Assembly (NCBI GenBank): GCA_945865855.1
Contig: CAMBES010000001.1
Coordinates: 1-31,714 of the forward strand
DNA: 31,714 nt
Reading direction: 5' to 3'
Source of the DNA: Rhizobium sp. Q54
GTDB taxonomy: Bacteria > Pseudomonadota > Alphaproteobacteria > Rickettsiales > UBA1997
The stretch's first letter is position 1, and each line of letters opens with the position of its first letter. This document shows positions 2,047-18,849 of this stretch, one piece after another. The notes below the pieces were generated by a model, which was not told the origin of the DNA, made no database searches, and saw only the letters and a list, made by a program, of their open reading frames with translations. A program made the translations under genes and the position numbers.

Positions 2047-4098
2047 TTAAAACGGCCCTTTAAATTCTTCTAACTCTTCGTTTTTTACATTAAGTTTTGA
2101 CCAGTCAATCCTCTCACATGCAAGCATTTCACAGACTTTATTCGAGATGGTTTTGCTGTTTGGATAGAATAAATCTTCGAGTGATTTTGTTGTCGGACAC
2201 GTTGTCGCTGCAAAGCCCCTGCGCGCGATTTGGATTTTCTTATTCGGGAATTCTTCGCAAATTCTTGCGATGATTTCTGCCGATGTTCCGAACTCAACCC
2301 AACCATTATCAACCACTAAAATTTTTCCGGTTTTAGCGACAGATTTTTTGATCAATTCAATATCGAGTGGATTTATCCAAATTGGATCAATCACTTCGGC
2401 ACTAACTCCAATCGACTCAAGATGATGCGCTGCACGAGTCGCCTCCAGAGCCATGTGCGAGATGCCAACAACAGTAATATCTTTTCCTTCTTTGACGATT
2501 CTACCTTTACCAATTTCCATTTCAAAAGCGTCTACAGGCACGTAACTCTTAGAATTACAAAGCAAACGATGCTCCATAAAAATCACCGGATTATTGTCGC
2601 GAATCGCCGCGATCAAACATCCTTTCGCATCGTGAGCATTAGACGGAGCTACAACACGCATTCCAGGAATATGCGCGAATAGTGAATGGAGAGCTTGTGA
2701 ATGTTGTGCACCCTGCCCCCAAGATCTACCAATCATCGTACGCACAACCAGTGGAATAGACAGCGCGCCATTATACATGTAATGCGCTTTTGCTGCCATG
2801 TTGATGAGTTGATTCGCTGCCAGCGTCATAAAATCCATTCTGATGTGAACGTGAATTGGACGTAAGCCATACATCGCCGCACCTACCGCTACACCAGTCA
2901 TCGCATCTTCAGAAAGTGGGGTTCCGAATAATCTTTCTGGTCCGAATTTTTCGATTCCATCAGTTGAGCCTTGGATTTTTTTGTGATCGTCAACATCTAA
3001 ACCAAAAACAAAAACTTTTTCATCGCGCGCCATTTCTTGAATGCAGGCTTCCGCAATTGCATCAACGTAGCGAATTAATTTCTGCTCAGATTTTTTTGTG
3101 ATCACTTTGTCTTTGATCTTCTCAAGCCTTGGTGCGAGGACGTTCTCGAATAATTCTTTTACGCCAGGAAATTTTGATTTCTCAGAAAAATCGATTGAGT
3201 CAGAAATTTTTTTCTCAACTTTTTTGGTAATTTTTTTCACTTCATCAGCATCAAGCATTTTTGCCAAAACGGCAATCTGATCATTGGCAAGCCAGGTTTT
3301 ATATGTGTCGAGACAGCGATAATCTTCGTTTAAATCTTCAGTTGGACCAACATGTTCTTTGTAGCGATAAGTATGACATTCGATAAAAATTGGCCCGCTT
3401 TCTGGATTATTTTTAATCTCATTTAGAGCTTTTTCGGTCACTTCGCGAATCTTAAAAACATCGCCGTCAGTAACGCGGAAAGTCTTGATTCCGTAGGTCG
3501 CAATACGTTCACAAATTTTGTCAGTTGGCCATCTGCGCTCGATTGGATTATGAATCGCCAAACCATTATTTTCGCACAAGAAAATCATCGGCAACTTATG
3601 AAGTGCGGCAAAATTTATACTTTCAGAAAAACATCCTTCTTCAGTTGCGCCGTCACCAAAAAATGAAACGACAACTCTTTGCTTACCAGTTTTTTTTGCT
3701 TCACGCTTCAATGCCATCGCATAGCCTGTAGCCACGGGAATCGTGGTTCCAACCACGGCAGACGCGCCCATGATTCCGTGATTCATATCGATCAAATGCA
3801 TCGACCCAGCCTTACCGCCAGCGCAGCCATCTTTTTTTCCGTAAAGTTCCGCCATCATTTTATTGAGATCTCCACCCTTGGCAATGTGAGTGGCGTGACA
3901 TCTGTAAGTGTTCGAAACGATATCATCTTTCGCTAAAATATCACAAACGCCGACAGCTACAGCCTCTTGACCAATCGATAAATGCACAGGACTTTTAATG
4001 GCATCAGTGTGATAAATTCCCGCGATCTTTTCTTCGAATTTTCTGATAAGTAACATCGACTCATAAAGACGTGAAACTAGATTCTTGCTTTGTGTCAT
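2047..4098 (-). CDS. ThDP-dependent 2-oxoacid dehydrogenase E1 alpha/beta fusion protein (no E2/E3 nearby)
   Basis: Alpha part: HLSIGQEA, GDGATEEG...CENN ThDP motif, TYRYKEH. Beta part: TPLSEDAMTG, GAQHSQ, PVIFMEH, EVIDP. 683 aa single ORF. Confidence 0.9.
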   Translation of the reverse strand: MTQSKNLVSRLYESMLLIRKFEEKIAGIYHTDAIKSPVHLSIGQEAVAVGVCDILAKDDIVSNTYRCHATHIAKGGDLNKMMAELYGKKDGCAGGKAGSMHLIDMNHGIMGASAVVGTTIPVATGYAMALKREAKKTGKQRVVVSFFGDGATEEGCFSESINFAALHKLPMIFLCENNGLAIHNPIERRWPTDKICERIATYGIKTFRVTDGDVFKIREVTEKALNEIKNNPESGPIFIECHTYRYKEHVGPTEDLNEDYRCLDTYKTWLANDQIAVLAKMLDADEVKKITKKVEKKISDSIDFSEKSKFPGVKELFENVLAPRLEKIKDKVITKKSEQKLIRYVDAIAEACIQEMARDEKVFVFGLDVDDHKKIQGSTDGIEKFGPERLFGTPLSEDAMTGVAVGAAMYGLRPIHVHIRMDFMTLAANQLINMAAKAHYMYNGALSIPLVVRTMIGRSWGQGAQHSQALHSLFAHIPGMRVVAPSNAHDAKGCLIAAIRDNNPVIFMEHRLLCNSKSYVPVDAFEMEIGKGRIVKEGKDITVVGISHMALEATRAAHHLESIGVSAEVIDPIWINPLDIELIKKSVAKTGKILVVDNGWVEFGTSAEIIARICEEFPNKKIQIARRGFAATTCPTTKSLEDLFYPNSKTISNKVCEMLACERIDWSKLNVKNEELEEFKGPF

Positions 4099-4114
4099 AA
4101 TTAAAATTTTAAAA

Positions 4115-5041
4115 ATGGTTTATCCTAAAATCACAATCATCACTCCGGTAAAAAATTCAGCAAAAACTTTGGAGAAATCCATTAAAAGTTTGTTGCAACA
4201 AAATTACCCAAATCTGGAATATATTATCATGGATGGAGGCTCAATTGACGGCACTCTAGACGTTATAAAAAAATACGAAAAAAATATCACTTATTGGCAA
4301 AGCAAGAACGATGGTAGCAACGTAGTAGCGCACATTGAAGGAATAAAAAAAGCCAGTGGAGAAATTGTCGCCTTTCTCAATGCTGATGATTTTTATGAAC
4401 CAGAAATTTTGAAAAAAGCTGGCGCAGACTTTGCAGAAGATTCTTCGCTAGATATCATTTCCTTCCGTTTTAGAACCATAAAAAATGATAAGGTTAATGA
4501 AGAAGTAGCCCTTCAAGACATCGATCTAAACAAAAATAAAGTTACAGCCGCACTCGGAATTAATGCGCGCTTTTTCAAGAAAGATCTGTTTTATAAATAT
4601 GGCTTTCCCCTTACAAATGACGACCGCGGCAGAGTTCTCATCAGCAATGATTTAGAATATATTACCCGTCTTCTTCTCAAAGGCGTCAAAAACAAAAGTG
4701 TCGATTATATCGGGTATAATTACGTCATCCATGATGATTCTTTGACCTTCTCTAAAAGCCACGCAACTAAGATTCGTCTTTGCGAGGATAAAATTTTTAT
4801 CGCTAAAAAATTTCTCAATTCATCTGAATTCAATTTAGCAAAAACCTGGCGCAAAACTTTTAAGAAATGGATCAAGAAATATCGCGCGATGCTTGTAGCT
4901 AGCCACCTCAAGCAAGGTCACCTAAAAGAAGCGAAAGAAAATTTTCTTGCTGGAAGCGAAGAAAATGGATTCATCAAATTTGCTTTCTACTCAGTTAAGA
5001 CACTGATTCGAAGCAGAAAAGAGAAGGGAGTTGGTTTTTAA
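4115..5041 (+). CDS. Glycosyltransferase family 2, antisense to the surrounding cluster
   Basis: PKITIITPVKN...SLLQQNYPNLEYIIMDGGSIDGT...GEIVAFLNADD. Start moved from TTG 4085 (which overlaps the E1 gene) to ATG 4115. Confidence 0.85.
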   Translation: MVYPKITIITPVKNSAKTLEKSIKSLLQQNYPNLEYIIMDGGSIDGTLDVIKKYEKNITYWQSKNDGSNVVAHIEGIKKASGEIVAFLNADDFYEPEILKKAGADFAEDSSLDIISFRFRTIKNDKVNEEVALQDIDLNKNKVTAALGINARFFKKDLFYKYGFPLTNDDRGRVLISNDLEYITRLLLKGVKNKSVDYIGYNYVIHDDSLTFSKSHATKIRLCEDKIFIAKKFLNSSEFNLAKTWRKTFKKWIKKYRAMLVASHLKQGHLKEAKENFLAGSEENGFIKFAFYSVKTLIRSRKEKGVGF

Positions 5042-6203
5042 GCACCAAGAATTTCTTCCCGATTCTCGACGCTTCAGCCGCCCTCATATCGGTTTCATTA
5101 TCGCCAAGCATTAGAGATTTTTTTGGATCGATGTTAAATTCTTCAATTGCCTTCAGAAGCATGCCAGGAGAGGGTTTGCGATCAAATGAGTTTTGGCGAT
5201 ATTTTTCAATTTTTCCTTCTGGGTGACATGGGCAGTAAAAAGTTTTGGTGATTTTTATTTCGCGTTTTTGGAACTCACTTTCCATCCATTTCGTTAGCTC
5301 GAGAAATTCTTCTTCGCTGTAAAAACCTTTGGCGATTCCGCCTTGGTTTGTTACTACGATTAACAAATATCCAAGATCTTGTGCGCGTTTGCAGAGATCA
5401 AAAATTCCATCGATAAAATCAAATTTTTCCTTCTCAAAAACATGGCCATGATCGATGTTAATTACTCCGTCGCGATCGAGAAATAATGCTTTGTTTTTAA
5501 TGAAATTTGACAGCTCTTTTTGTGCTCTTGCGTAATCTTCAGGAATGCCAATATCGATGAAATATCCTTCAGCTGTAAAGGCTTGCGGCTCAAGCCATGA
5601 AAGCTCTTTTGCTAAAAAGTCTGACTCAAAAGAAAATGCTTCTGGAACTGAGAATCTTTTAAAAATTTTTGGATCCAAAAGATAAATCCCCCCATTAATG
5701 AATCCTTCACTCGATGTCATCCCGAGTTTGTCTAAGGGTTTTTCTTCGAAATTTTTGATCACAAAATTCTCATCAAAAACTACGCGTCCGTAACGACTAC
5801 AATCATCCATCTTGCGCAAAACCATTGTCAGATTTTTCTTGTGAGCGGCGAATAATTTTTGGTAATCAACTTGCAAAAAACTGTCACCATTCAACACCAA
5901 AACTGGCTGATTTTGATCAATAAATTTTAGTGAATTTATAATTGCTCCACCGGTACCTAGAGGCTTGTCTTCTCTCGCGTAAGAGACGCTCATCCCCAAA
6001 TAATTATCACTAAAATATTCAACGATTTTTTCTTGCAGATAACCAACTGAAATCACCACTTTTTTTACGCCGTGATTGCGCAAATTCTGCAAAAGATAAG
6101 CCAAAAAAGGTTTACCAGCAATATCCGCCAACGGTTTTGGTACATCCTTTACAACCTCTTTTAATCTAGTTCCAAAGCCACCCGCTAAAATTATCGCCTG
6201 CAT
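4995..6203 (-). CDS. hddC: Fusion of heptose-1-phosphate guanylyltransferase (HddC-like) and heptose-1,7-bisphosphate phosphatase (GmhB)
   Basis: N-terminal LAGGFGTRL...PKPLA...FIDIGIPEDY. C-terminal KALFLDRDGVIN, VTNQGGIAKG, CPCHP, RKPSPGM, GDNETD (GmhB motifs). Sits with gmhA and hddA. Confidence 0.88.
   Translation of the reverse strand: MQAIILAGGFGTRLKEVVKDVPKPLADIAGKPFLAYLLQNLRNHGVKKVVISVGYLQEKIVEYFSDNYLGMSVSYAREDKPLGTGGAIINSLKFIDQNQPVLVLNGDSFLQVDYQKLFAAHKKNLTMVLRKMDDCSRYGRVVFDENFVIKNFEEKPLDKLGMTSSEGFINGGIYLLDPKIFKRFSVPEAFSFESDFLAKELSWLEPQAFTAEGYFIDIGIPEDYARAQKELSNFIKNKALFLDRDGVINIDHGHVFEKEKFDFIDGIFDLCKRAQDLGYLLIVVTNQGGIAKGFYSEEEFLELTKWMESEFQKREIKITKTFYCPCHPEGKIEKYRQNSFDRKPSPGMLLKAIEEFNIDPKKSLMLGDNETDMRAAEASRIGKKFLVLKNQLPSLFCFESVS
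5716..5738. repeat. Degenerate REP-like half element inside the hddC coding sequence
   Basis: GTCATCCCGAGTTTGTCTAAGGG resembles the GTCATCCTGAGCTTGTCGAAGG palindromic repeat class (recalled, not searched). It is read in frame as PLDKLGMT. Confidence 0.5.
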
Positions 6204-6310: not shown

Positions 6311-6321
6311 GGAGAAATATG

Positions 6322-6924
6322 TTATTTTTTATTTTTTGGGTCGTGAGTTGCGCCGAAAAAATAATCTTCAATCAAAGCGCAAATTATGTGACCAGCGGCA
6401 ATGTGACCTTCTTGAATTTTAGGAGTTTCGTCGGAAGGAATATTGATTTGGTAATCAGCAATCGCGCCAATATCACGACCATTTTCACCTAAGAATCCAA
6501 CCGCGATGATTTTTTTTGCTTTCGCTGCCTTCAAGGCTTCGAGCACATTTTTGCTACGACCGGAAGTTGAAATTCCGATCAATACATCGCCAGCCTGCCC
6601 TACGGCCTCAAGCTGACGCGAGAATGAATGAAGATAACCGTAATCATTGCCAATAGCCGTCAAGGCAGATGTATCAACGCTTAACGCCATCGCATTTAAA
6701 GGTGGACGATCGTAGGAAAGTTTGCTCACCAGCTCCGCTGACAAATGTTGTGAATCAGCAGCGCTGCCGCCATTGCCGCAAAATATGATTTTTCTGCCCT
6801 GCTTCAATGATTCGATACAGGTTTTCGCAACAGTTTCGATGTCGCGATGTAATTTTTCGTCAGCTAAAATTTTTTCAAAAACATCGCGCGTTTTTGTGAA
6901 TTCAGAAATTATGTAATTTTTCAT
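6322..6924 (-). CDS. gmhA: Sedoheptulose-7-phosphate isomerase
   Basis: CGNGGSAADSQH, TAIGNDYG, GISTSGRSKNV, TPKIQEGH. Confidence 0.95.
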   Translation of the reverse strand: MKNYIISEFTKTRDVFEKILADEKLHRDIETVAKTCIESLKQGRKIIFCGNGGSAADSQHLSAELVSKLSYDRPPLNAMALSVDTSALTAIGNDYGYLHSFSRQLEAVGQAGDVLIGISTSGRSKNVLEALKAAKAKKIIAVGFLGENGRDIGAIADYQINIPSDETPKIQEGHIAAGHIICALIEDYFFGATHDPKNKK

Positions 6925-7970
6925 TTGTTGATTCTCCAGCTCTGCGAACCCTCGTCAACAAAGTGACAAGGCATGGTTCGACCAGCTTTTTCTTGTTCAA
7001 GTAAGCGTATAATTTTCATTCTTTTTGACGGCGGTACCAAAAACATAATGAAGCCACCGCCGCCAGCACCGGAAATTTTTCCAGACATAGCGCCAGCATC
7101 CATAACCAGGTCATAAATGCGGTCGATATTAGAATTAGAAATTTTTGCTGAGGCTGATTTTTTTGCTTCCCATCCTCGCCTCATTGATTCGGCAATTGCT
7201 TTAATGTCACCTCTCAACAATGCATCCTTCATTTCAAAAGACTCTTGCTTGATTGCTAACATTGACTTGATGACCTCTTCTGATTTATTTTCGATGTTAT
7301 TATTTTGCTCTTCAATGATTGCTCCTGAGTCACGCGAGACGCCGGTATAGAATAAAATTAGAGATTGCTCGAGTTCAGATAAAATCCACTTACGCACCTT
7401 CAATGGATTGATGATCGTTCGGTCATTTTTGTAAAATTCCATGAAATTTACACCGCCAAAAGTTGCAGCATATTGATCCTGCTTTCCGCCTTTCATCTGC
7501 AAATCTTGACGCTCAATTTCGTAAGCAAGTTTAGCGATATCGTAATCTCCGAAAGGAATGGAGAGAAATTCGACGTAAGCCTTGATTATTGATACCACTA
7601 AGGTTGAAGAGGAACCAAGCCCTGACCCAGGGGGAGAATCGCAATAAGTCGTCATCTTAAAAGCACCGATCGGATGACCTTTATTACAATCTTTAACGAT
7701 GCGATTGTAGATCGCCTTATGTAGCTTCAGAGCTCCTGTTGGCTCAATGTAATCGGTAAGCGCAATTTCAAATTCTTCGCCAATGTCGGAAGCAACGAAT
7801 CTAATTTTTCCGTTATGTTTTGGCTTCAGAGTGCAGCATGCGTAAAGATCAATTGTCGCATTCAAAACACAGCCGCCATAATTAGAATAGAAAGATTCCA
7901 TGTCTGTTCCGCCACCGGCTAAACCTAGGCGAAGTGGTGATCGCGAGCGAACTAAAAATAATTCTGACAT
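6921..7970 (-). CDS. hddA: D-glycero-alpha-D-manno-heptose-7-phosphate kinase (GHMP family)
   Basis: RSPLRLGLAGGGTD, PPGSGLGSSS, GGKQDQY, GKISGAGGGGF. Confidence 0.92.
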   Translation of the reverse strand: MSELFLVRSRSPLRLGLAGGGTDMESFYSNYGGCVLNATIDLYACCTLKPKHNGKIRFVASDIGEEFEIALTDYIEPTGALKLHKAIYNRIVKDCNKGHPIGAFKMTTYCDSPPGSGLGSSSTLVVSIIKAYVEFLSIPFGDYDIAKLAYEIERQDLQMKGGKQDQYAATFGGVNFMEFYKNDRTIINPLKVRKWILSELEQSLILFYTGVSRDSGAIIEEQNNNIENKSEEVIKSMLAIKQESFEMKDALLRGDIKAIAESMRRGWEAKKSASAKISNSNIDRIYDLVMDAGAMSGKISGAGGGGFIMFLVPPSKRMKIIRLLEQEKAGRTMPCHFVDEGSQSWRINK

Positions 7971-9015: not shown

Positions 9016-10062
9016 TTACTGATTCAGTATTTTTTTAATATTGGCCTCAAACTCAACCACATCTACGATCTGGTCGGTATGAAATTCATTCAAATAGGTA
9101 TTGGTTTTATCGACTTCGCAATATTGGTAAAAATGTTTGAGATTAAACGCTTGCGAAGCCTCGGCAATCATGATCGCCCCCGGAAGATCGTCATATTCTT
9201 TTCTCGGGTAAAGTTCGAGAATTTTAGTGCCGGCCTGACAGAACATAACGTTGGTCAAATTCGATCCACACTGACTAACAATAACCTTCGCATTGTAAGC
9301 AATCGCAACACTGTCAGCGAAACTAAAATCTTCCATGTAAACTGTGGTAAACCCGTATTTAGACAAAACTTTATCTACCTCGGTCTGATTCAAAATAATG
9401 CGTTTTTTTTGCTTACTGCGCGAAATGAAAATTCTTTCGCCGAGACTGAAATTTAAAGCATTATTCTTCTTACAATAATCAAGAATGGTGTTGGCAACCT
9501 CAACGGTCACCGAGTCGTAAGTTGTAGTCGGCCCGCCTCCCCCAAGCATGAAAGTAGGAAAAATTATATGATTAGATGTCACTGCTTCGCGCTTATCAAA
9601 TTTGATAACTTGCTCTTTAGGAATTCCGATCATTTCCAAAGTTTCTAAGCAAAAATTGCTCTCATAAAAAATCTTAGGAAGTGCGACCTTAAAATCATTT
9701 TTGTAATGCTTTTTAACCAGATAAGCTCTGATCAAATTATCACACATCCAGTGGCTAAAATAAGGCGAATATCCATCAGCAATAACAAGCACCGGCATAT
9801 CTTTCATGTCGATGATTTTGCTCTTGAAATAGAGATGAACTAATATTTTTTGGAGGCAGTAAAAGCTCTTTGAAAAATCAGGGCGCGACTCTTTCATCAA
9901 GCGTAATCCACGAAAAATAAGATTGTCGAGATTGACGTAAGCCTTGCCGTAATCGATTAATTTTACTTCGCTCGTTTTCCCCAAATAAGCTCTCGGCGCA
10001 GAATAATTTGATGGCAGAGTGCGGCTGATTTCGATTTGTGGTAAAATGATTTCTGATTTCAT
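9016..10062 (-). CDS. Glycosyltransferase family 61 (DUF563-like)
   Basis: YFSHWMCD, RIFISRSKQKKRIILNQ, EDFSFADSV...AKVIVSQCGSNLTNVMF...ILEL, matching the GT61 pattern. Confidence 0.75.
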   Translation of the reverse strand: MKSEIILPQIEISRTLPSNYSAPRAYLGKTSEVKLIDYGKAYVNLDNLIFRGLRLMKESRPDFSKSFYCLQKILVHLYFKSKIIDMKDMPVLVIADGYSPYFSHWMCDNLIRAYLVKKHYKNDFKVALPKIFYESNFCLETLEMIGIPKEQVIKFDKREAVTSNHIIFPTFMLGGGGPTTTYDSVTVEVANTILDYCKKNNALNFSLGERIFISRSKQKKRIILNQTEVDKVLSKYGFTTVYMEDFSFADSVAIAYNAKVIVSQCGSNLTNVMFCQAGTKILELYPRKEYDDLPGAIMIAEASQAFNLKHFYQYCEVDKTNTYLNEFHTDQIVDVVEFEANIKKILNQ

Positions 10063-10079: not shown

Positions 10080-10994
10080 TTAATTAAGAAGTTTCAGAAC
10101 CTCCGATTCAACTGCTTTTGAAGATAATAAATTTTTCTGATATAAAAATTTTTCACTGCCGTAAAAACCATCAGATAAAGACTCAACCGCCATTCTTTTT
10201 AACTTACAGTTAAGTGAATTTTCAGCAATAATTTCAGCGATCATTGAGCCAATTCCGCCATTGGCGTAGTGAGCTTCGAGCGTAATCACATTCTGATGTT
10301 TTTTGAGTAAATTTTTGATCTCTTCCAAAACTTCTTTTTCAAAAGTTGGGATCATCGCGAAAGTGATTTTAATATTTTTTTGCAGCAGATTTTTAACGGC
10401 AATTTCGGCTTCTGCGCCAATAGTTCCAAGAGAGAGTAAAATTAAATTTTTGCCACTTTGCACAATTTGTAATTTATGTGGATCGAACTCTGTTTGCTCC
10501 GCTAAAATTTTTGTCGTGCCTTTACCAATGCGATAAAAAATTGGGCCAGAATATTGATAAGTTTTTTCTAACGCTTGCGGCGATTGAACATCATTGCTCG
10601 GAGCAACATACATAAAGCCCGGCTGAGATCTGACTAGAGCAACATCTTCAAGCAAATGGTGCGTTGAACCCAGAAGGCCATATTCAAATCCGCAACCGAT
10701 ACCAACAAATCTTACTGGCAAACGATGAAAAACTGGGCCATTTCTTATAAATTCAAAAGGACGCAAAAGAACAAAAGGTGAAATTGAATAAACAAAAGGA
10801 ATGAAGCCATCTTTAGCTAAGCCAGTTGCAATGCCGACCATATTTTGCTCAGAAACTCCGACGTTGTAAAAACGATCAGGAAAGTTTTTTTGGAATTCTT
10901 CAACAACAGAAAAACCTAAATCTGCAGTGAGTAAAACAATGCGCTGATCTGTTTTTGCGAGCTCAATTAATTTTTTGATAAAATCGTTACGCAT
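10080..10994 (-). CDS. Split transketolase, C-terminal (pyrimidine-binding/C-domain) subunit
   Basis: LLTADLG, FPDRFYNVGVSEQNMVGIATGLA, GSTHH, EAHYANGGIGS. Confidence 0.9.
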   Translation of the reverse strand: MRNDFIKKLIELAKTDQRIVLLTADLGFSVVEEFQKNFPDRFYNVGVSEQNMVGIATGLAKDGFIPFVYSISPFVLLRPFEFIRNGPVFHRLPVRFVGIGCGFEYGLLGSTHHLLEDVALVRSQPGFMYVAPSNDVQSPQALEKTYQYSGPIFYRIGKGTTKILAEQTEFDPHKLQIVQSGKNLILLSLGTIGAEAEIAVKNLLQKNIKITFAMIPTFEKEVLEEIKNLLKKHQNVITLEAHYANGGIGSMIAEIIAENSLNCKLKRMAVESLSDGFYGSEKFLYQKNLLSSKAVESEVLKLLN

Positions 10995-11775
10995 TCAACT
11001 CCTGCATGGCTTGTTGATATTCCTGCTCATTCATTGATTTGTAATGCCAAGGAATTGATTTCTCCATGAATGACACACCTTTCCCGGAAATTGTTTTAGC
11101 GGAAATGAAAGTTGGCTGATCAATTTTTTGTTCAATGAATTTTTTCAAAGTAGTTCTAATTTTTTCTTGATCATGGCCATTAATTTCCTCAACAAAAAAT
11201 CCGAAAGTTTTTATTTTTTGTGCAACATCAGAAATATTAATTACTTGATCAGTAAAGCCCAAAGCCTGTTGCCCGTTGAGATCAAGAATAATGCATAAAT
11301 TATTTAGCTTGTGATGCGCGGCAAATAAAATCGCTTCCCAGAAAGAACCTTCGTCAAGTTCAGCGTCGCTAATTAGACAATAAATTTTGCGATTACTTTT
11401 TTGAATTTTTGCTGCCAAAGCTGCACCAGTTGCGAAAGTAATGCCCTGCCCTAATGAGCCAGTTGTAAATTCAATTCCAGGTACAAAATGTTTTGGGTGA
11501 ACAGCAATTCTCGTACCATCAACACAGTAGCTATCGAGCTCTTCTCTGCTCAATAAACCTTTCAAAAACAAAGCGGCATAAAGAGCTAAAACGGCATGAC
11601 CCTTTGATAAAACAAAACGATCTCGCTCAGGATTCTTTGGGTCATCAATTATGATTGCATCCTGATACAAAACACCAATCAAATCAGCAATGGAAAGGGC
11701 TGAGCCAATATGCCCAACTCCGGCCACTTTAGAGTTTTTGATGACAATTTTTCTAATTTCGTCGGAGAAATTCAT
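10987..11775 (-). CDS. Split transketolase, N-terminal (ThDP-binding) subunit
   Basis: GHIGSALS, RDRFVLSKGHA, TTGSLGQG, SDAELDEGSFWE...DLNGQQ, KGVSFME. Start moved to ATG 11775 because the track start at 11868 overlaps rfbF. Confidence 0.9.
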   Translation of the reverse strand: MNFSDEIRKIVIKNSKVAGVGHIGSALSIADLIGVLYQDAIIIDDPKNPERDRFVLSKGHAVLALYAALFLKGLLSREELDSYCVDGTRIAVHPKHFVPGIEFTTGSLGQGITFATGAALAAKIQKSNRKIYCLISDAELDEGSFWEAILFAAHHKLNNLCIILDLNGQQALGFTDQVINISDVAQKIKTFGFFVEEINGHDQEKIRTTLKKFIEQKIDQPTFISAKTISGKGVSFMEKSIPWHYKSMNEQEYQQAMQELNA

Positions 11776-11783: not shown

Positions 11784-12560
11784 CTACCAGATTTTCCACG
11801 GCGCTTTGCCCGCAGACCATAAATTTTCGAGATGAATTTTGTCGCGCTGAGTATCCATCGCATACCAAAAATCTTCGTGCTTGAAGGAAAGAAGCTGATT
11901 GGCTTTAACCATATTTCTTAATGGCTCCTGTTCTAAAATCACCTCCTCGCCATTCGGAATATAATCAAAAACCTGCGGCGAAAAAACAAAAAATCCGCCA
12001 TTGATGTAATTGCCGTCGCCAGAAGGTTTTTCATGAAAATTGCGCACAGTTTCTTCATCGTCAGATAATTCTAGAACACCAAATCTTCCCGCTGGCTTTA
12101 CTGCGGTAAGGGTTGCAGCCTTGCCATGCGATTTATGAAATTTGATTGTCTCTGAAATATTGGCGTCGCAAACACCGTCTCCGTAGGTAAGACAGAAATC
12201 TTCGTCGCCAACATATTTTTGGATTTTTTTGATGCGCGCGCCAGTCATCGCGTGCTCACCAGTTTCAACTAGAGTCACTTTCCAATCTTCTGAAGAGTTG
12301 TTGTGAATAACTTGAGTATTGTTCGCCAAATCAAAAGTGATGTCCGACATGTGGCGGTAATAGTTAGCGAAATATTCCTTCACCACGTAGCCCTTGTAAC
12401 CCAAGCAAATCACGAATTCTTTGATGCCGTGAGCTGAATAAATTTTCATAATGTGCCACAAAATCGGCTTTCCGCCAATCTCAATCATCGGCTTTGGCTT
12501 AAGACCAGTCTCTTCGCTAAGTCTTGTGCCAAGGCCACCGGCAAGGATTACTGCTTTCAT
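11784..12560 (-). CDS. rfbF: Glucose-1-phosphate cytidylyltransferase
   Basis: LAGGLGTRLSEET, KPMIEIGGKPILWHIMK, LTYGDGV, FWYAMDTQRDK, APWKIW. Confidence 0.95.
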   Translation of the reverse strand: MKAVILAGGLGTRLSEETGLKPKPMIEIGGKPILWHIMKIYSAHGIKEFVICLGYKGYVVKEYFANYYRHMSDITFDLANNTQVIHNNSSEDWKVTLVETGEHAMTGARIKKIQKYVGDEDFCLTYGDGVCDANISETIKFHKSHGKAATLTAVKPAGRFGVLELSDDEETVRNFHEKPSGDGNYINGGFFVFSPQVFDYIPNGEEVILEQEPLRNMVKANQLLSFKHEDFWYAMDTQRDKIHLENLWSAGKAPWKIW

Positions 12561-12561: not shown

Positions 12562-14343
12562 TTATTTTAATTTCATTGTCACAAAATATTTCTCTGCCAC
12601 AAAATATGGATCAGAAATAACCTCTTTCCAAAAAACATTTCCGTCTTTTTCTTCTTTGCGCAGCGGAATGCGAATGATTTCTGCAAAGCCAATATTGTTG
12701 TAAATATTTACCGCTGATTGGTTATCAGCAAAAACACGCAAATAAACTTTACTGATCTGCAATTCTTTCTTAGCAAATTCAATAATTCTCTGACAGGCTA
12801 AAGTCATCAAGCCTTTAGCAGTGCCATTAACGCCGCGGATAATGTTATCAAGCTCGCAAGCTTGCTTTTGATAATCGAATCTGAATAGCCCTACATGTCC
12901 AATCAGCTGATTTTTTTCATCAGCAACAAAATATAAAATACGATCTGTTTGTTCTAAAACTTGTTTTTCAGTCCAAGCTTTTGTTCCTTCGAAAGTAACT
13001 TTAAATTGCGACGGGAAGGCGTGCTGGCTCTCTTTGCGCCAATTGGTTAAAAGAGTGATTTTTGCATCATCCTTTAAAGTTGCGGCAGTGATTGGAATTA
13101 ATTTTCCGACAACTTTGCCCCCATCTTTAATTTCCATCTCAGTTGAACCATCTGTTTTATTGGTTTTAAGGGTTACTTCAACTTTTTCACGATATTCTAA
13201 AAATCCTGAAATCTTTTTGTCTTTTGATTTCGCGCCCAAAATATCACGAACGTGAGAGCAGATATAATCTACTTCTTCCTCAGTTCTATTGTGACCACTT
13301 GGTAAGTTAATGCCGCGTAAGCCTACGTGATAAGCATCTTTATTATCAACTTTCGAGAACATTGGCAACGAACTCAAAGGGTAAAAAATTGGACGAGAAT
13401 CAATCATTCTCTCTTTCAACTTTCCTATAAATTCATCGCGCGAAAATTTCACTTTTTCCTCAAGCACAATTGAGCTCATCCAATAGATATTTTTTGCCCA
13501 AGGCTTTTGTGCATTAAGTGCAATTAGATCGGATAAATCGCCCAATCTTTCTTGATACCATTTGAAAATCTGAATCTTGCGCTCAACAATTTCTTCAACC
13601 CTTTCAATCTGCGCCAAACCAATAGCTGCTTGAGCATTAGACATTTTATACTTATAGCCAATGTCAAGGTTATAGAGAGTTCTTTTTGGATCTCGACCTT
13701 GATCCCAATAGAATTTAAATTTCTCGTTAATTTCATCATTATTGGAAACATAGATTCCACCTTCACCAGTTACGATTGCCTTAGCGCCTTGAAAGCTAAA
13801 AGCACCAACGTCACCCAAACTTCCGGTTTTTTGACCTTTATATTCCGCGCCAATTGATTGCGCAGCATCTTCAATAATTATCAAATTATGCTTTTTTGCC
13901 AAGGCCCAGATTGGCTCCATATCGCAAGGATGCCCATAAATGTGAACCGGCATAATAGCTTTCGTTCTTGGCGTGATCGCCTTTTCTAAAGACTCTGGAC
14001 ACATCGTCCAAGAAGCGCGATCAACATCACAAAATACAGGAGTTGCTCCAACGTATTTCACCGCCGCCGCCGTGGCGATCCAAGTAATTTCAGGAAGAAT
14101 AATCTCATCTCCCGGACCATAACCAAGAGCAATCATCGTCAAATGCATCGCTCCAGTGCAACTTGAGGTAGCAATCGCATGCTTCGTTCCGACATATTCG
14201 CCAAATTTGGTTTCGAATTTTTTGATGTAATCGGAATGATGCATGTTCCAGCCGTTCTTGATAGCGTCAGCCCCATACTCAATTTCTTTCTGAGTAATTG
14301 AAGGCCCAGCGGTCAGAATCATTTGATTGATGATGTCTTTCAT
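12562..14343 (-). CDS. DegT/DnrJ (perosamine-synthase-like) PLP aminotransferase fused to a C-terminal GNAT N-acetyltransferase
   Basis: SSCTGAMHL, PVHIYGHPCDM, IEDAAQS, FSFQGAKAIVTGEGG (catalytic Lys present), NIYWMS. The last ~200 aa contain IGHVGL and LRVFADNQSAVNIYNNIGF (GNAT). Start uncertain (14343 or 14322). Confidence 0.85.
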   Translation of the reverse strand: MKDIINQMILTAGPSITQKEIEYGADAIKNGWNMHHSDYIKKFETKFGEYVGTKHAIATSSCTGAMHLTMIALGYGPGDEIILPEITWIATAAAVKYVGATPVFCDVDRASWTMCPESLEKAITPRTKAIMPVHIYGHPCDMEPIWALAKKHNLIIIEDAAQSIGAEYKGQKTGSLGDVGAFSFQGAKAIVTGEGGIYVSNNDEINEKFKFYWDQGRDPKRTLYNLDIGYKYKMSNAQAAIGLAQIERVEEIVERKIQIFKWYQERLGDLSDLIALNAQKPWAKNIYWMSSIVLEEKVKFSRDEFIGKLKERMIDSRPIFYPLSSLPMFSKVDNKDAYHVGLRGINLPSGHNRTEEEVDYICSHVRDILGAKSKDKKISGFLEYREKVEVTLKTNKTDGSTEMEIKDGGKVVGKLIPITAATLKDDAKITLLTNWRKESQHAFPSQFKVTFEGTKAWTEKQVLEQTDRILYFVADEKNQLIGHVGLFRFDYQKQACELDNIIRGVNGTAKGLMTLACQRIIEFAKKELQISKVYLRVFADNQSAVNIYNNIGFAEIIRIPLRKEEKDGNVFWKEVISDPYFVAEKYFVTMKLK

Positions 14344-14362
14344 AATTGGAGAATTTTTGAAC

Positions 14363-15553
14363 TTAATATTGCGACAGGAATTCACTGATTGTCGAATGCA
14401 TATGCGCGATCATCTCTTCATTTAGGCCGTGATGACAAGCAAGTAAAGTACCGCCGCGCATCACGTTATCAGAATTAGCGAGATTTGCAGCTTTGCGCAT
14501 TTCAATATTTTTAAAACCGGGCTGACGCGTGATATTGCCGGTGAAAAGAACGCGAGTTTGAACATTTCTTTTTTCCAAGAAAATTTGGAAGTCGCGACGT
14601 TCGAAAGGCGCTGAATCTTTAACAATAATTGGAAAAGCTAACCAGCCAGTGCGCGTATTTTTTGTCTCTTCTGGCAGTGTAAAAAACTCTTCATATTTTT
14701 TGAAAAAGTTTATTTGTGTTTGGTAATTTTTACGACGTGTATCGATGTTATTTTCCAAATCATTGAGCTGTTCGAGACCAAATGCTGCACCGATTTCAGA
14801 GCCTTCTAAATTATAGCCGATAGATTCAAAAACGAATTTTGCGTCGTAATTAATTCCGTCAATATCAACGTTAAAACGGTTCTCGATTGCTTCAGATTTT
14901 TCGTCAAAAATTGATGAGCTGCGACCCCAAGAACGCAGAAGTTTAGAATTTTTTACATGCTCTTCATCATTGATGCAAAGCGCGCCACCATTGCCGGCGC
15001 AGTTGATGATGTGCGATCCGTAAAAACTGGTGATCGACATGTCAGACCAGGCGCCACTTGATTTGCCGTTTAGAGTTGATCCTAAAGCATCAGCAGAATC
15101 TTCGATTATTCTTAAATTATATTTCTTGGCGATCTCGGCAATTTTGTCCCACTCGCAAATATTTCCAATCAAGTTTGGCGCGAGAATTGCTACGGTTTTT
15201 GGCGAAATCATTTCTTCAATTTTTGCCGGATCGATGCAGAAATCAGCAAAACCAACATCAACAAAAACTGGGATCAAACCTGCTTTTACGATAGAGCCGA
15301 CAGTCGTTGAGAATGTAAGTGCGGGGGTGATTACTTCAGAACCTTTTTCAAAACCAAAAGCTTCAACACCAATGTAAAGCGCGGAAGAGCCAGAGTTAAC
15401 GTAGAGACAATGTTTTTTTGCAAAAAGTGCAGCGATTTTTGCTTCAAATTCGCGCGCATATTTTCCCATTTGCGTGCCTTCTTTCAGGCATTTTACGACG
15501 GCATCAATTTCCTTTTTACCGTAGACGGTTCTGGCGTAAGAGACGGAGATCAT
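14363..15553 (-). CDS. PMP-dependent NDP-4-keto-6-deoxyhexose 3-dehydratase (RfbH/DdhC/ColD family)
   Basis: DegT fold with His in place of the Schiff-base Lys (SFYGSHII). Also NSGSSAL, IIEDSADALG, LRSWGR, FESIGYNL. Confidence 0.8.
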   Translation of the reverse strand: MISVSYARTVYGKKEIDAVVKCLKEGTQMGKYAREFEAKIAALFAKKHCLYVNSGSSALYIGVEAFGFEKGSEVITPALTFSTTVGSIVKAGLIPVFVDVGFADFCIDPAKIEEMISPKTVAILAPNLIGNICEWDKIAEIAKKYNLRIIEDSADALGSTLNGKSSGAWSDMSITSFYGSHIINCAGNGGALCINDEEHVKNSKLLRSWGRSSSIFDEKSEAIENRFNVDIDGINYDAKFVFESIGYNLEGSEIGAAFGLEQLNDLENNIDTRRKNYQTQINFFKKYEEFFTLPEETKNTRTGWLAFPIIVKDSAPFERRDFQIFLEKRNVQTRVLFTGNITRQPGFKNIEMRKAANLANSDNVMRGGTLLACHHGLNEEMIAHMHSTISEFLSQY

Positions 15554-15596: not shown

Positions 15597-15640
15597 AGTT
15601 CACCAATTCGGTTCTTTAACATTTCCCCGAAAAGTATCGC

Positions 15641-15721
15641 GTCATCCCCGCGCAGGCGGGGATCCAGGGGGGCTCGCAATGTGCTGGAACTTTCCTAGAT
15701 CCCCGCCTGCGCGGGGATGAC
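15641..15721. repeat. REP doublet (same family as 6226-6310)
   Basis: GTCATCCCCGCGCAGGCGGGGATCCAG, then a 27-nt loop (15668-15694), then CTAGATCCCCGCCTGCGCGGGGATGAC. Confidence 0.92.
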
Positions 15722-15785
15722 GAAAAAGAGAAGATCGGGAATAAATTACGGAACTTAAGTTGGTGAATTTTTACAGGATGAAGTG

Positions 15786-16904
15786 TTACTTAAGTTTTAG
15801 TAAAAGGAAATAGTCGGTTAAAGCCAGCTGTAATTTAACGAATTTTTTACGCAGAGAATTTTTCATTCTTTGGAAAAAATTCTTTTTCTTCACGATTAAA
15901 AAATCTGGATTTAGCGCCAGAAAATGATCCCAATTTTTCAGAGAGATCGTCTCTTTCTTACTGTATTTACCTGCATCTGCAGCAACAATCTCAGAAATTA
16001 AATTGTAAAGATTGTGCTTATCCATCACCAAATCTTTCGCCTGTAAAATTTTCTCTTTCGATTTCTCGTAAGTATTTTCGGCGATCACTTTTTCAATTAT
16101 CGCCAAAGCAGTTTTTGGATGTTTGATGTCAATTTGCGTGAGCATTTCGCGATCGAAATAATCATGAATATTCGGAGCGCCATAATAAATCGGGTAAGCA
16201 CCAGCCATGAAAGCGTCTGCTAATTTTTCCGTCCAATAATCGTTGGAACTGCTATTTTCAAGCGAGAGGTGATATTTGTAAGGCGCGATGCCGTCCCATT
16301 TATTTGGCATGTCGCGAACTCCGGCACCAAACCAATCTAGCTGATCGCCAAAATGTTCTTTGGCTTTAAGGCAGAAATCGAGGCGAGCTCTGTGCCCAGG
16401 GCTGCAGACTTTGTTTGAACAAAAAACCGAAATTAGTTTTGGTTTTTCATATTCGCGCATCTTTTTGAAATCATCATAACCAAAACCTTCGCCTTTCCAT
16501 TCGTTGAAATCGTCACCGCTTTTAATGGGATGCCCGGCATCAACCCACCAATTCATCGGTGAATGCGCCTTGTAAACTCTAGGGTGCTTGGCCTGTTCGT
16601 GTGAAACGTAGAGGCGATAAAATTGATTAATAAATGGCGATAGAGAGTCGTAGCGAATTGTTTGTGGCGGCTCGCAAGCCATAAAAATCACGTTTTCTTT
16701 CGGACAAAGACAAGTTTCGTGAATAAAACTTTCGCCAATCACAACCCAATAATCAGCCTCGATAATTGAAGCATCATTGTAAAAAAACTCACAATTCTTC
16801 CAAAGATTTCCGCGCCCCGGCAAAAATTTATTCATCATTGGATTGGAATGATCTTGCGCCGCAAGACTTACGTTTCCGGCGCTAATTTTTACTCTTACCT
16901 TCAT
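15786..16904 (-). CDS. Glycosyltransferase family 10 (alpha-1,3-fucosyltransferase-like)
   Basis: YKYHLSLENSSSNDYWTEKLADAFMAGAYPIYYGAPNI is the GT10 signature. FCSNK is also present. Confidence 0.82.
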   Translation of the reverse strand: MKVRVKISAGNVSLAAQDHSNPMMNKFLPGRGNLWKNCEFFYNDASIIEADYWVVIGESFIHETCLCPKENVIFMACEPPQTIRYDSLSPFINQFYRLYVSHEQAKHPRVYKAHSPMNWWVDAGHPIKSGDDFNEWKGEGFGYDDFKKMREYEKPKLISVFCSNKVCSPGHRARLDFCLKAKEHFGDQLDWFGAGVRDMPNKWDGIAPYKYHLSLENSSSNDYWTEKLADAFMAGAYPIYYGAPNIHDYFDREMLTQIDIKHPKTALAIIEKVIAENTYEKSKEKILQAKDLVMDKHNLYNLISEIVAADAGKYSKKETISLKNWDHFLALNPDFLIVKKKNFFQRMKNSLRKKFVKLQLALTDYFLLLKLK

Positions 16905-17743
16905 TATTTACCGAATCTTTTTTGTAATTTTTTTTTGGCTTTTTTTACTAAACAGAATTTAGCAAAAAGCCCATATCCCCTAGAACTACAATTCTTCAAA
17001 ATATCCAATTGATCTTGCTGCATTTCTTTTCTTGAGGGCAAGATTTTATTCTCAGAATTTCCTAGAGATTTTTGCCAAGCCTTAACTTGCTCCTCATCAG
17101 ACAATTCTATTTTTGTCTGACGCCAATTGTAAATCGAGCGTGGCGAATAAATTAATTTCCCTTCGCGCGCCATATTGCAAACAAAAACGTGATCATTACC
17201 GATCATCGCTTTCATCGGAAATTTTTGCGCAACTTTCGTACGAAAAATTCCAAAAAGTGCTGAGACTTCATGAAGATGAGCGATCAGGCAATATATGCGC
17301 TCTGCCGCATAATCAGAAGTTAGGCGATTGGCATACCAAAAGTCGTAAATGCCGATTTCAACATCCTCATTATCAATCGCCCGAGAAGCGGGATAGCAAC
17401 CAACAGCATCACTATTTTCAAGAATGTGCAGCATGTGCTTGGTGTATCCTTCATCCAAATAATCATGACCACCCATCCACATAAAATATTTGGTCTTCGC
17501 CTCCTTGAGTAGAAAATTGAAATTCGCCGTTCCGCCAACATTTTCAGCATGTCGGATGTAAACTAGGCTTGAATATTTCTGCGCCAATTCTTCGCAAATT
17601 TTCTGTGTATCGTCGGTTGATGCATTGTCAGAAACGATCACAAATCCCGCTTGATCAATACAAGATTCTATCGTTTTTTTGATATGCCTCGCCTCATTGT
17701 AAGCAGGAATACCAATGGTTAGCAGGTTTTTGTAATATTTCAT
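16904..17743 (-). CDS. Glycosyltransferase family 2
   Basis: LTIGIPAYNE, VSDNASTDDT, ENVGGTANF, YFMWMGGHD (DxD position is degenerate). Confidence 0.82.
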   Translation of the reverse strand: MKYYKNLLTIGIPAYNEARHIKKTIESCIDQAGFVIVSDNASTDDTQKICEELAQKYSSLVYIRHAENVGGTANFNFLLKEAKTKYFMWMGGHDYLDEGYTKHMLHILENSDAVGCYPASRAIDNEDVEIGIYDFWYANRLTSDYAAERIYCLIAHLHEVSALFGIFRTKVAQKFPMKAMIGNDHVFVCNMAREGKLIYSPRSIYNWRQTKIELSDEEQVKAWQKSLGNSENKILPSRKEMQQDQLDILKNCSSRGYGLFAKFCLVKKAKKKLQKRFGK

Positions 17744-18849
17744 GCAGTGAATTTTCTGATTTGTTCGGTGGTAAAAATTTTTACATCAGACTTTTTTTCA
17801 AGGTAATTCCCGTACCACTCCGCCGTCCATTCAAGCGTTTCTTCAAAAGATAATTTTGGCTGCCAGTTAAGTTCTTTTGTGGCGCGAGAATGGTTTAATT
17901 TAAGGATTCCCGCCTCGTGTAAGTTTTTTGCACCCCCCATCGTCGCGCTACGCGTCGACTCGATCCCCCCTAAATAGCGAGGATCCTGCGCGTCAGTAGC
18001 TATTTCATAAGAACCTGTTCCAATTTTCTCGATTAAAGTTTTAGTCAGAATTTCAACATTTTGCTCCGCATCTTTATTTGGACCAAAATTGTAAGCCTTA
18101 GCAAAATCTTCGCCTTTTTCGTAAAGATTTTGCGTTAAAAGCAAATATCCGTAAAGCGGCTCAAGCACGTGCTGCCAAGGTCTGATCGAATTTGGCGAGC
18201 GCAATTTAACTTTTTCTCCGGCGCGAATTGCGCGAAAAATATCCGGAATAATTCGATCAATAGAAAAATCGCCACCACCAATCACATTGCCGGCGCGAGC
18301 TGAGGCGAGCTGAATATTTTCTTTTTGAAAAAATGAACGGCGATAAGAAGAAGTTAAAATTTCTGCACAAGCCTTGCTCGACGAGTAAGGATCGTAGCCG
18401 CCTAACGCGTCTTCTTCTTGGTAGGCGTAATCAGTCTCGCGATTTTCGTAGCATTTGTCGGTGGTAATATTTGTGATCACCCTCACCGAACCCGCTTTGC
18501 GCGCCGCTTCAAAAACATTGAGCGTGCCAATCACATTAGTCTCGTAAGTTTTTCGCGGATCAAAATAAGAGTCGCGCACCAAGGGCTGCGCCGCCAAATG
18601 CAAAATAATTTCCGGCTGAAAATTTTTTACCGCCGCCGCGATTTCGTCAGAATTTCTAATGTCACCGATTATTGATTTTTCTAGCCCCAACGCAACTTCC
18701 GCCGAGTTAAATAAACTTTCTTCATCAGCTTTTAGCGAAAATCCCGCCACTTTCGCACCCAACATTGTAAGCCAAAGCGAGAGCCACGAACCCTTGAAAC
18801 CAGTGTGCCCGGTGAGAAAGATTTTTTTTCCTGAGTAGAAATTTTTCAT
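17740..18849 (-). CDS. rfbG: CDP-glucose 4,6-dehydratase
   Basis: TGHTGFKGSWL, HLAAQPLVRDSY, ITTDKCYEN, DPYSSSK, RAGNVIGGGD, RPWQHVLEPL. Confidence 0.95.
   Translation of the reverse strand: MKNFYSGKKIFLTGHTGFKGSWLSLWLTMLGAKVAGFSLKADEESLFNSAEVALGLEKSIIGDIRNSDEIAAAVKNFQPEIILHLAAQPLVRDSYFDPRKTYETNVIGTLNVFEAARKAGSVRVITNITTDKCYENRETDYAYQEEDALGGYDPYSSSKACAEILTSSYRRSFFQKENIQLASARAGNVIGGGDFSIDRIIPDIFRAIRAGEKVKLRSPNSIRPWQHVLEPLYGYLLLTQNLYEKGEDFAKAYNFGPNKDAEQNVEILTKTLIEKIGTGSYEIATDAQDPRYLGGIESTRSATMGGAKNLHEAGILKLNHSRATKELNWQPKLSFEETLEWTAEWYGNYLEKKSDVKIFTTEQIRKFTA
17932..17991. repeat. GC-rich, imperfectly palindromic 60-nt in-frame insertion in rfbG
   Basis: 39/60 G+C by hand count. Encodes AQDPRYLGGIESTRSATMGG between ...IATD and AKNLHEA. 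Core is CCCCCC-ATCGTCGCGCTACGCGTCGACTCGAT-CCCCCC. Confidence 0.55.

Follow-up and report, generated by a model that had tools for sequence, protein, structure and literature searches.

Two candidate cassettes for thiamine diphosphate-dependent branching of 3,6-dideoxy-4-keto sugars joined in one alphaproteobacterial surface-glycan locus

C-branched sugars are rare antigenic determinants, and the only proven bacterial route to them in surface glycans uses YerE-type enzymes, whose thiamine diphosphate (ThDP)-dependent branching of CDP-4-keto-3,6-dideoxyglucose is established (PMC9306805). In the yersiniose A pathway of Yersinia pseudotuberculosis, DdhA-D (equivalent to RfbF, RfbG, RfbH and RfbI) are followed by YerE and YerF, and YerE-like enzymes also include ErwE, MyGE and JanthE (PMC9306805, PMC12188165). 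In actinomycete antibiotic pathways, E1-type (alpha-KADH2) pairs such as AviB1/B2, AlmDI/DII, Pau11/12 and KbDH-alpha/beta take an acetyl equivalent from pyruvate and attach it to an NDP-keto-sugar, and split-gene transketolases (TKs) have been proposed to transfer a hydroxyacetyl unit in the miharamycin and amipurimycin nucleoside-antibiotic clusters of Streptomyces (PMC12247030). Our literature searches on transketolase with rfbF in O-antigen clusters, and on heptose with E1 and radical SAM, returned nothing relevant, and we found no paper that ties E1-type or split-TK-type branching to lipopolysaccharide (LPS) or capsule loci or to heptoses. Here we describe a 31,714-base stretch of DNA (the window) that makes up the whole of contig C1 (CAMBES010000001.1) in the assembly GCA_945865855.1 of Rhizobium sp. 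Q54. Its surface-glycan locus combines two nucleotide-sugar routes with a split TK-like enzyme and a fused E1-type enzyme.

We put slightly better than even odds, a probability of roughly 0.55, on the reading that this locus encodes ThDP-dependent C-branching of 3,6-dideoxy-4-keto sugars. Each of its two cassettes would follow the logic of the yersiniose pathway while using a different class of ThDP enzyme. A fuller version of this proposal falls somewhat short of an even chance: that the remodelled split TK, acting on a CDP-hexose, and the fused pyruvate dehydrogenase (PDH)-E1-like enzyme, acting on a GDP-heptose, make two undescribed C-branched surface sugars, one of them with an acetamido group on the branch, as part of a toolkit that combines donors with ketone-tailoring steps. 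The genes on which a first-pass annotation had based its branched-sugar interpretation (two nucleotide-sugar routes, two 4,6-dehydratases, a 3-dehydratase, the E1 fusion, the split TK and an aminotransferase-GNAT protein, at 2047-18849) are all present on the minus strand, and that interpretation is partly supported overall. Its proposal that the ThDP enzymes may be C-C ligases for NDP-keto-sugars is consistent with every comparative test that we ran. Its view that both act mainly on the CDP-hexose is not supported, since co-occurrence analysis of the gene set resolved two independent cassettes and placed the E1 fusion with GDP-heptose and the split TK with CDP-hexose.

The CDP-hexose cassette resembles the yersiniose A pathway in having a front end of RfbF, RfbG and an E1-type 3-dehydratase, followed by a ThDP enzyme and then by tailoring of a ketone. 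It differs in that the ThDP enzyme is TK-like and encoded by two genes, rather than having the decarboxylase/acetohydroxyacid synthase (AHAS) fold, and in that tailoring would be carried out by a DegT aminotransferase fused to a GNAT N-acetyltransferase (AT-GNAT), rather than by a reductase such as YerF. In addition, the 3-dehydratase is Fe-S-free and there is no E3 (RfbI) gene in the window. This RfbH-like enzyme aligns over its full length with the Yersinia E1 3-dehydratase 3BCX and carries His where aminotransferases have the catalytic Lys ("SFYGSHII" versus "SFYPAHHIT" of 3BCX), at the position altered in the H220K mutant structure 3BB8. The aligned segment lacks all the Fe-S cysteines of E1 ("WGRSSSIFDEKSEAIENRF" versus "WGRDCYCAPGCDNTCKKRF" in E1), and the score against the NCBIfam RfbH model is 327, with a cut-off of 423. 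These features suggest a 3-dehydratase of the ColD-like, E3-independent type, which would explain why no ferredoxin-reductase-type gene that could serve as the E3 (RfbI/AscD) partner appears among the Pfam results for the window. Both this enzyme and a DegT protein encoded on contig C93 of the same assembly share with ColD the replacement of Lys by His and the lack of Fe-S cysteines. However, the RfbH-like enzyme is the better sequence match to the CDP-specific E1, at 224 bits versus 137 bits for ColD, and it is linked to RfbF and RfbG.

The split TK retains the machinery for binding ThDP and has lost residues that define ordinary TKs. The open reading frame (ORF) of its N-terminal half is open to 11868, with the likely ATG at 11775, 8 bp after rfbF, and its product matches the genuine split TK 6YAK (E 3e-58, 200 bits). 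Our alignment of this half (A3) places the beginning of the conserved core at about residue 32, and the ThDP motif is SDAE...N, such that its Asp and Asn are kept; the catalytic Glu (Glu49) of the C-terminal half is invariant. When that half is compared with 6YAJ and human TK, "tHaGltvGEDGasHQ" is changed to "gigCGfeyGLLGstHH" and "iRlgR" to "yRigK," so that the canonical His and Asp ("H.G...GEDG") and the second Arg ("R..R") are G, L, and K. We take these positions to be H461, D469, and R520 of the E. coli enzyme, which presumably bind the sugar phosphate and the C2-OH.

The altered motif is strongly associated with CDP-sugar genes. A metagenome scan seeded with alignment A3 yielded 80 loci that we sorted by the motif of the C-terminal half, 21 of which were not classifiable. 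None of the 30 loci with the canonical motif has CDP-sugar or DegT genes nearby (298 kb examined), versus 14 of the 29 loci with the motif of the window enzyme (Fisher p = 6e-6). The latter carry RfbF (50-60% identical), RfbG, DegT and often a gene resembling SDR349, a short-chain dehydrogenase/reductase (SDR) that is also encoded in sister genomes. Their full-length DegT proteins comprise eight His-type dehydratases, seven with the full Fe-S motif of E1, and six Lys-type aminotransferases, some of which are 50-54% identical to AT-GNAT. Thus, the split TK belongs to a subfamily that lacks the canonical sugar-phosphate-binding residues and is part of an RfbF/RfbG/dehydratase cassette. It resembles the miharamycin and amipurimycin TKs in being a two-gene TK in a sugar pathway with a ketone as the proposed acceptor, but, unlike them, it is part of a CDP-3,6-dideoxyhexose cassette, and many environmental metagenomes contain this cassette.

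Sister genomes provide the strongest single argument that the split TK does a job analogous to that of YerE. The window has the gene order RfbH-like, AT-GNAT, RfbF, the N- and C-terminal TK halves, and a GT61-family glycosyltransferase. Locus L028 has the order RfbH-like, SDR349, RfbF, the two TK halves, GT61, and the loci designated G001/L040 have the order RfbH-like, SDR349, RfbF, a 582-aa enzyme, GT61. The flanking genes are 88-99% identical across these loci (88-92% between G001/L040 and the window). The 582-aa protein (L040:2974-4722; contig C15 of G001) that occupies the exact slot of the TK, beside the genes for the YerE substrate, is a single chain with the TPP_enzyme_N/M/C domains of YerE-like lyases, which neither ThDP enzyme of the window has. 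It scores below every acetolactate-synthase cut-off; among solved structures, it matches 5AHK best (315 bits), followed by E. coli AHAS I (277 bits) and 8RPH (271 bits). We take 5AHK to be YerE of Pseudomonas protegens, although this identity is unconfirmed and its depositors named it acetolactate synthase II. The entry 8RPH is JanthE, a characterised YerE-like enzyme that accepts ketones (PMC12188165). The split TK shares the genetic context of YerE-like lyases, with genes for CDP-4-keto-3,6-dideoxyglucose in the same operon, and this represents a functional likeness and not family membership.

The sister loci also bear on the tailoring step. The slot between the RfbH-like and RfbF genes holds SDR349 in L028, L040, L205 and L207, and AT-GNAT in L206 and L209. 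The DegT part of AT-GNAT keeps the catalytic Lys. Because AT-GNAT and the SDR alternate in one slot of the cassette in relatives, we regard AT-GNAT not as a bystander but as an alternative tailoring step on the same ketone as SDR349; this ketone would be the one at ring C4 or the one on the branch.

The second cassette pairs the E1 fusion with genes for GDP-heptose synthesis. The fusion is flanked by HddC-GmhB, GmhA, HddA and an SDR whose best solved relative is the GDP-D-glycero-D-manno-heptose 4,6-dehydratase of Campylobacter jejuni (7US5) and whose gene adjoins the heptose genes. E1 relatives are encoded in at least 576 stretches of the species-genome collection, and we annotated the best 80 loci over ±10 kb around the E1 homologue against a panel of proteins from the source genome. 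Heptose genes of any kind are present in 62 of these 80 loci (HddA in 52 and HddC/GmhB in 51), a DmhA- or Fcl-like SDR in 61, DegT in 46 and a B12 radical SAM gene in 25. Split TKs are present in 7, RfbF in 3, and RfbG and E2 in none. Among 45 full-length DegT enzymes in the E1 loci, 42 are of the His type expected for 3-dehydratases, with the copy on C93 among them. Distant E1 loci from Thalassotalea, Microcoleus and a metagenome contig (three of three) likewise lie beside HddA/HddC, in some cases with GmhA/GmhB, and a B12 radical SAM gene. On the basis of these cross-phylum counts, the E1 fusion most likely belongs to the GDP-heptose cassette. The conserved unit comprises GDP-heptose synthesis, a 4-keto-forming SDR, a 3-dehydratase and the E1 enzyme, and the predominance of His-type DegT proteins implies a conserved order of chemistry (4-keto formation, 3-deoxygenation, ThDP enzyme) that is similar to the YerE route (PMC9306805).

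In a family alignment (A1), the ThDP motif GDGA..EG...NN and the catalytic Glu of the E1 fusion are invariant, and the His motifs of the alpha and beta parts are both conserved. We presume that these His residues have the active-site roles of E1 enzymes, and their conservation does not separate a carboligase from a dehydrogenase. By its domains, by its context and according to published descriptions, the fusion resembles the alpha-KADH2 pairs in being an orphan PDH-E1-like ThDP enzyme that resides, without E2, among deoxysugar genes. It differs in that a single 683-aa protein contains both alpha and beta, in that its locus is a Gram-negative surface-glycan locus and not an antibiotic cluster, and in that it is linked to GDP-heptose and not to a dTDP-hexose. 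The capsular heptose toolkit of C. jejuni has the same GDP-heptose genes and a close DmhA homologue, together with a C3-dehydratase and C4-reductases, and the source genome encodes a ColD-type DegT and an Fcl-like SDR on C93. The difference is that the present cassette has the E1 fusion as a conserved component; we know of no ThDP enzyme that takes part in the described heptose pathways of C. jejuni.

Several features of the E1 relatives are worth recording. A word-indexed search found thousands of them, including three proteins of about 960 aa in which E1 is fused to a nucleotidyltransferase; a fused protein of this kind, of 956 aa, is encoded at L037. At L037 (10001-12871 of a metagenome contig) and L038 (10001-12028, Thalassotalea sp. 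G2M2-11), the E1 cassette lies beside flagellin or FleQ/FleS/FleR genes, which suggests flagellin glycosylation. Six loci (L083, L084, L085, L088, L092 and L093) have a second sort of split-TK-like pair within heptose/E1 cassettes that lack rfbF. In these pairs the canonical His is absent and the Asp of the GEDG motif is kept, and thus some loci hold two ThDP enzymes per heptose pathway.

Both ThDP enzymes of the window are additional to a housekeeping set, and both have scores under the curated cut-offs for the housekeeping families. The genome encodes a full-length TK (24266-26218 in the window), DXS (C43), PDH E1 beta (C35) and the E1 of 2-oxoglutarate dehydrogenase (OGDH; C29), and E2 genes are found beside OGDH E1 on C29 and on C6. 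A tblastn search of the assembly (G000) with the 582-aa AHAS/YerE-like protein found no gene of the acetolactate-synthase or YerE-like type, and homologues of the B12 radical SAM protein and SDR349 were likewise not found; the assembly is 84% complete and the locus is cut, so this is not evidence of absence.

The two cassettes are separable. Among 100 genomes of the family, close orthologues of E1 are found in six and of TK in five, and none has both, which indicates separate modules that have been combined in the locus of the window. Loci L205-L209, from members of the genus and family, have the CDP/TK cassette with AT-GNAT or SDR349 and have no heptose or E1 gene, and the E1/heptose cassette is present without any TK in L041, L042 and L044-L048. 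Both cassettes are widespread across phyla, and therefore the system is not unique to the source organism. The contributions of the window are the occurrence of both cassettes in one locus, a fused E1 and, with the YerE-like enzyme, a three-way allele series. We regard the locus as a variable surface-glycan island that serves LPS or capsule in an alphaproteobacterium with a small genome and that joins two independent, horizontally mobile cassettes.

Because the first-pass annotation drew attention to the lack of a 4-ketoreductase, we inspected the Pfam Epimerase matches of the whole assembly. The only extended SDRs in the window are the two dehydratases. Elsewhere, Gmd and Fcl are encoded on C37, GalE on C30 and a 313-aa SDR beside a GT4 gene on C66, and C43 has a fragment of an SDR at its end. 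In addition, C93 carries, in order, CstA, a 425-aa DegT, a 323-aa Fcl/C4-reductase-like SDR, a NUDIX protein and the contig end. In G001 the locus is contiguous and is flanked by CstA on one side and by aroQ/pssA/tkt on the other. The window ends on the aroQ/pssA/tkt side. As the annotation had predicted, the cluster runs past the left edge of the window: bases 2-124 encode the start of a further gene, whose product shares 66% identity over residues 1-41 with the 458-aa protein encoded after the GT_639 glycosyltransferase orthologue in L041. From these boundaries and the cut gene, we conclude that C93 is the other end of the locus, with the middle unassembled. Orthologues of the C93 SDR (75-87% identity) and DegT (75-98%) lie inside the E1 locus of L042, L045 and L047, and those in L042 share the strand of DmhA and lie a few genes upstream of it. 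Among solved structures, the C93 SDR is most similar to chains whose deposited name is GDP-L-fucose synthase (8DU0, E 4e-22), and the C93 DegT is of the His type without Fe-S cysteines. Thus, the absence of a reductase holds for the window and is an assembly artefact for the locus and genome, where an Fcl-like SDR and others in trans are available, as had been allowed for; we have dropped this absence as an argument. The NUDIX-domain protein (C93:2-796; L042:1607-2824; 405 aa when complete) is conserved in the heptose/E1 locus of relatives and is also found in Microcoleus (L039); it recalls the GDP-sugar hydrolases of colitose clusters.

On the branching hypothesis, the CDP-hexose cassette would operate as follows. 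RfbF would produce CDP-glucose, RfbG would convert this to CDP-4-keto-6-deoxyglucose, and the RfbH-like enzyme would remove the 3-OH to give CDP-4-keto-3,6-dideoxyglucose without needing an E3, by analogy with ColD. The split TK would then place a ThDP-bound two-carbon unit on the C4 carbonyl, as a glycolyl group if the chemistry is TK-like or as an acetyl group if pyruvate is the donor. The remaining ketone would be converted by AT-GNAT to an acetamido group, or reduced by an SDR in the sister genomes. In the heptose cassette, GmhA, HddA, GmhB and HddC would make GDP-D-glycero-D-manno-heptose, DmhA would generate its 4-keto-6-deoxy form, and the ColD-like His-type DegT of C93 would generate the 3,6-dideoxy-4-keto form. 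With pyruvate as the donor, the E1 fusion would then add an acetyl equivalent at C4, and the Fcl-like SDR of C93 would carry out a reduction. Beyond what is observed (the identities of the genes, their active-site signatures, their linkage and the slot replacement), we infer C4 as the acceptor carbon, the donors (pyruvate for the E1 fusion; a ketol, hydroxypyruvate or perhaps pyruvate for the TK), the order of the steps, the products, and the action of AT-GNAT or SDR on the branch ketone and not on ring C4.

A number of observations weigh against this proposal. Branching of keto-sugars by TK-type enzymes is unproven even in Streptomyces (PMC12247030). The N-terminal half of the window TK has SDAE where relatives have GDGE in the ThDP motif. 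Of the 80 E1 loci, 18 lack heptose genes within 10 kb, and 8 of these 18 are on stretches of the full 22 kb. The assembly lacks the middle of the locus, and the C93 genes are placed in the heptose cassette by the synteny of relatives only. Finally, the nucleotide-sugar enzymes would suffice for simpler products: DmhA, the ColD-like DegT and the Fcl-like SDR could make a plain 3,6-dideoxyheptose with E1 dispensable, and the RfbH-like enzyme with AT-GNAT or SDR349 would yield an unbranched 4-acetamido or 4-hydroxy sugar.

This last point defines the main rival, which we nevertheless consider unlikely. Under it, the 4-keto intermediates are merely aminated or reduced, giving a 4-acetamido sugar from the CDP-hexose and a 3,6-dideoxyheptose like colitose or the 3,6-dideoxyheptoses of C. 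jejuni from the GDP-heptose, while the ThDP enzymes act away from the nucleotide sugars, for example on a non-sugar substituent. All the necessary enzymes are present in the window and on C93, and the occupation of the AT-GNAT slot by SDR349 in G001 fits this scheme. However, it offers no account of the cross-phylum linkage of E1 to heptose and His-type DegT genes, of the linkage of the TK subfamily to RfbF, RfbG and dehydratase genes, or of the exact-slot exchange of the TK with a YerE-like enzyme.

Another possibility, ranking just below the first and likewise improbable, is that the ThDP enzymes extend the chain or attack another carbonyl (a C6/C7 aldehyde or a 3-keto group), producing a C8 sugar from the hexose and a C9 sugar from the heptose. 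The co-occurrence evidence fits this scheme as well as it fits branching, nothing in the sequence fixes the acceptor carbon, and extensive further tailoring is suggested by the B12 radical SAM and methyltransferase genes that accompany E1 in many loci. Against it, the conserved partners are 4,6- and 3-dehydratases whose product has its sole carbonyl at C4, and the TK slot is interchangeable with a YerE-like enzyme, known relatives of which attack C4 (PMC9306805).

It is very improbable that the split TK is an ordinary transketolase that raises the supply of sedoheptulose-7-P for the GmhA pathway, as its proximity to heptose genes in the window and the 200-bit match of its N-terminal half to 6YAK might suggest. 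The genome already has a full-length TK, the C-terminal half lacks the canonical substrate-binding residues, the heptose cassette occurs without any TK, the TK cassette occurs without heptose or E1 genes in genus members (L205-L207), and a YerE-like enzyme takes its place in G001. Least credible of all is that the E1 fusion is the E1 of a catabolic 2-oxoacid or acetoin dehydrogenase that lies in the island by chance, because, despite having PDH and branched-chain 2-oxoacid dehydrogenase (BCKDH) E1 subunits as its best solved relatives and keeping both His motifs, it has no E2 gene in any of the 80 related loci, it scores under both NCBIfam PDH E1 cut-offs (TIGR03182, 283 of 394; NF006667, 268 of 321), it is 47-54% identical to cyanobacterial, planctomycete and verrucomicrobial glycan-locus homologues versus 34-38% to the PDH E1 of its own family, and housekeeping PDH and OGDH are located elsewhere.

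If ThDP-dependent branching does take place, the swap in a sister locus of about 90% identity would imply that the split TK is equivalent to YerE in function and uses a different donor. The long-proposed, unproven activity of split TKs would become directly testable, and the YerE-like enzyme of L040, an allele from the same slot, could give functional tests a natural positive control. The synthesis of tertiary alcohols would gain two new families of ThDP carboligases that accept ketones, and branched sugars, including branched heptoses, would be far commoner in environmental bacteria than the record of glycan chemistry indicates. For annotation, calls of "transketolase" and "pyruvate dehydrogenase E1" within glycan loci should not be taken as central metabolism.

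Table 1. Features of the glycan locus, in window coordinates.
Feature	Coordinates	Strand	Basis
Next locus gene, N-terminus (41 aa), cut by contig end	2-124	-	tblastn
GT_639, two-domain glycosyltransferase (Glyco_trans_1_2 + GT2), 639 aa	125-2044	-	Pfam
E1 alpha/beta fusion, ThDP-dependent, 683 aa	2047-4098	-	Pfam E1_dh + Transket_pyr + Transketolase_C
GT2 glycosyltransferase	4085-5041	+	Pfam
HddC-GmhB fusion (heptose-1-P guanylyltransferase + heptose bisphosphate phosphatase)	4995-6203	-	NF049965, 236 bits (below cut-off of 300); TIGR00213, 186 bits (above cut-off)
GmhA, sedoheptulose-7-P isomerase	6322-6924	-	NCBIfam gmhA models, E 1e-54 to 1e-55
HddA, D-glycero-D-manno-heptose-7-P kinase (GHMP)	6921-7970	-	NCBIfam NF049969, E 4e-127
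DmhA-type GDP-heptose 4,6-dehydratase, SDR, 338 aa	7975-8991	-	PDB 7US5, E 2e-111
GT61-family glycosyltransferase, between both cassettes	9016-10062	-	Pfam
Split TK-like enzyme, Pyr/C-terminal half, non-canonical subfamily	10080-10994	-	Pfam
Split TK-like enzyme, ThDP-binding N-terminal half	10987-11775	-	Pfam Transketolase_N; PDB 6YAK
RfbF, glucose-1-P cytidylyltransferase	11784-12560	-	TIGR02623, 414 bits, over cut-off
AT-GNAT, Lys-type DegT aminotransferase-GNAT N-acetyltransferase fusion	12562-14385	-	Pfam/NCBIfam
E1/RfbH-like pyridoxamine phosphate (PMP)-dependent 3-dehydratase (DegT), 396 aa, Fe-S-free	14363-15553	-	PDB 3BCX, E 4e-65
GT10-like glycosyltransferase	15786-16904	-	Pfam
GT2 glycosyltransferase	16904-17743	-	Pfam
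RfbG, CDP-glucose 4,6-dehydratase	17740-18849	-	TIGR02622, 462 bits, over cut-off
GT9-like protein, 303 aa	18925-19836	-	No significant Pfam match; weak GT9, E 0.007
Small HAD-like phosphatase, 121 aa	19833-20198	-	Pfam
NTP-transferase + APH/choline-kinase-like fusion, 502 aa	20198-21706	-	Pfam (N-terminal); C-terminal part, Atlas lead only
ABC ATPase	21707-22420	-	Pfam

The source is a metagenome-assembled genome (MAG) of 1.19 Mb in 128 contigs; among public genomes, its nearest relatives are MAGs from fresh water that carry the label Rickettsiales or Alphaproteobacteria. With the exception of a single GT2 gene, all genes of the glycan locus (125-22420) are on the minus strand. Orthologues of that GT2 gene adjoin the E1 fusion in L028, L041, L042 and L045, and the orthologue of GT_639 comes after the E1 fusion in L041 (71% identity). 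The position of the GT61 gene is kept in L028 and L040, and orthologues of the GT10-like gene are found in the G001 and G025 loci. Scans of the window for tRNAs and Rfam families gave no matches.

At the right-hand side of the locus, the GT9-like protein has GT9 (heptosyltransferase) clusters among its Atlas neighbours, and an Acyl_transf_3 protein stands at the same position in G001; it may be a transferase for the heptose-derived sugar. The adjacent phosphatase and NTP-transferase fusion may constitute a third activation module (19833-21706), for a further sugar or an alcohol substituent. The C-terminal part of the fusion has no Pfam match, and its APH/choline-kinase likeness comes from the Atlas feature search alone. 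No gene for a Wzm-type permease was recognised beside the ABC ATPase. Housekeeping genes begin at 23036, with aroQ, pssA, the full-length TK, an MBL-fold protein, a methyltransferase and gcvP, and the G001 locus has the same right-hand ending, adjoining aroQ/pssA/tkt. Between the ABC ATPase and aroQ lie 615 bp (22421-23035) with no ORF of at least 100 aa, and the equivalent gap in G001 is about 140 bp.

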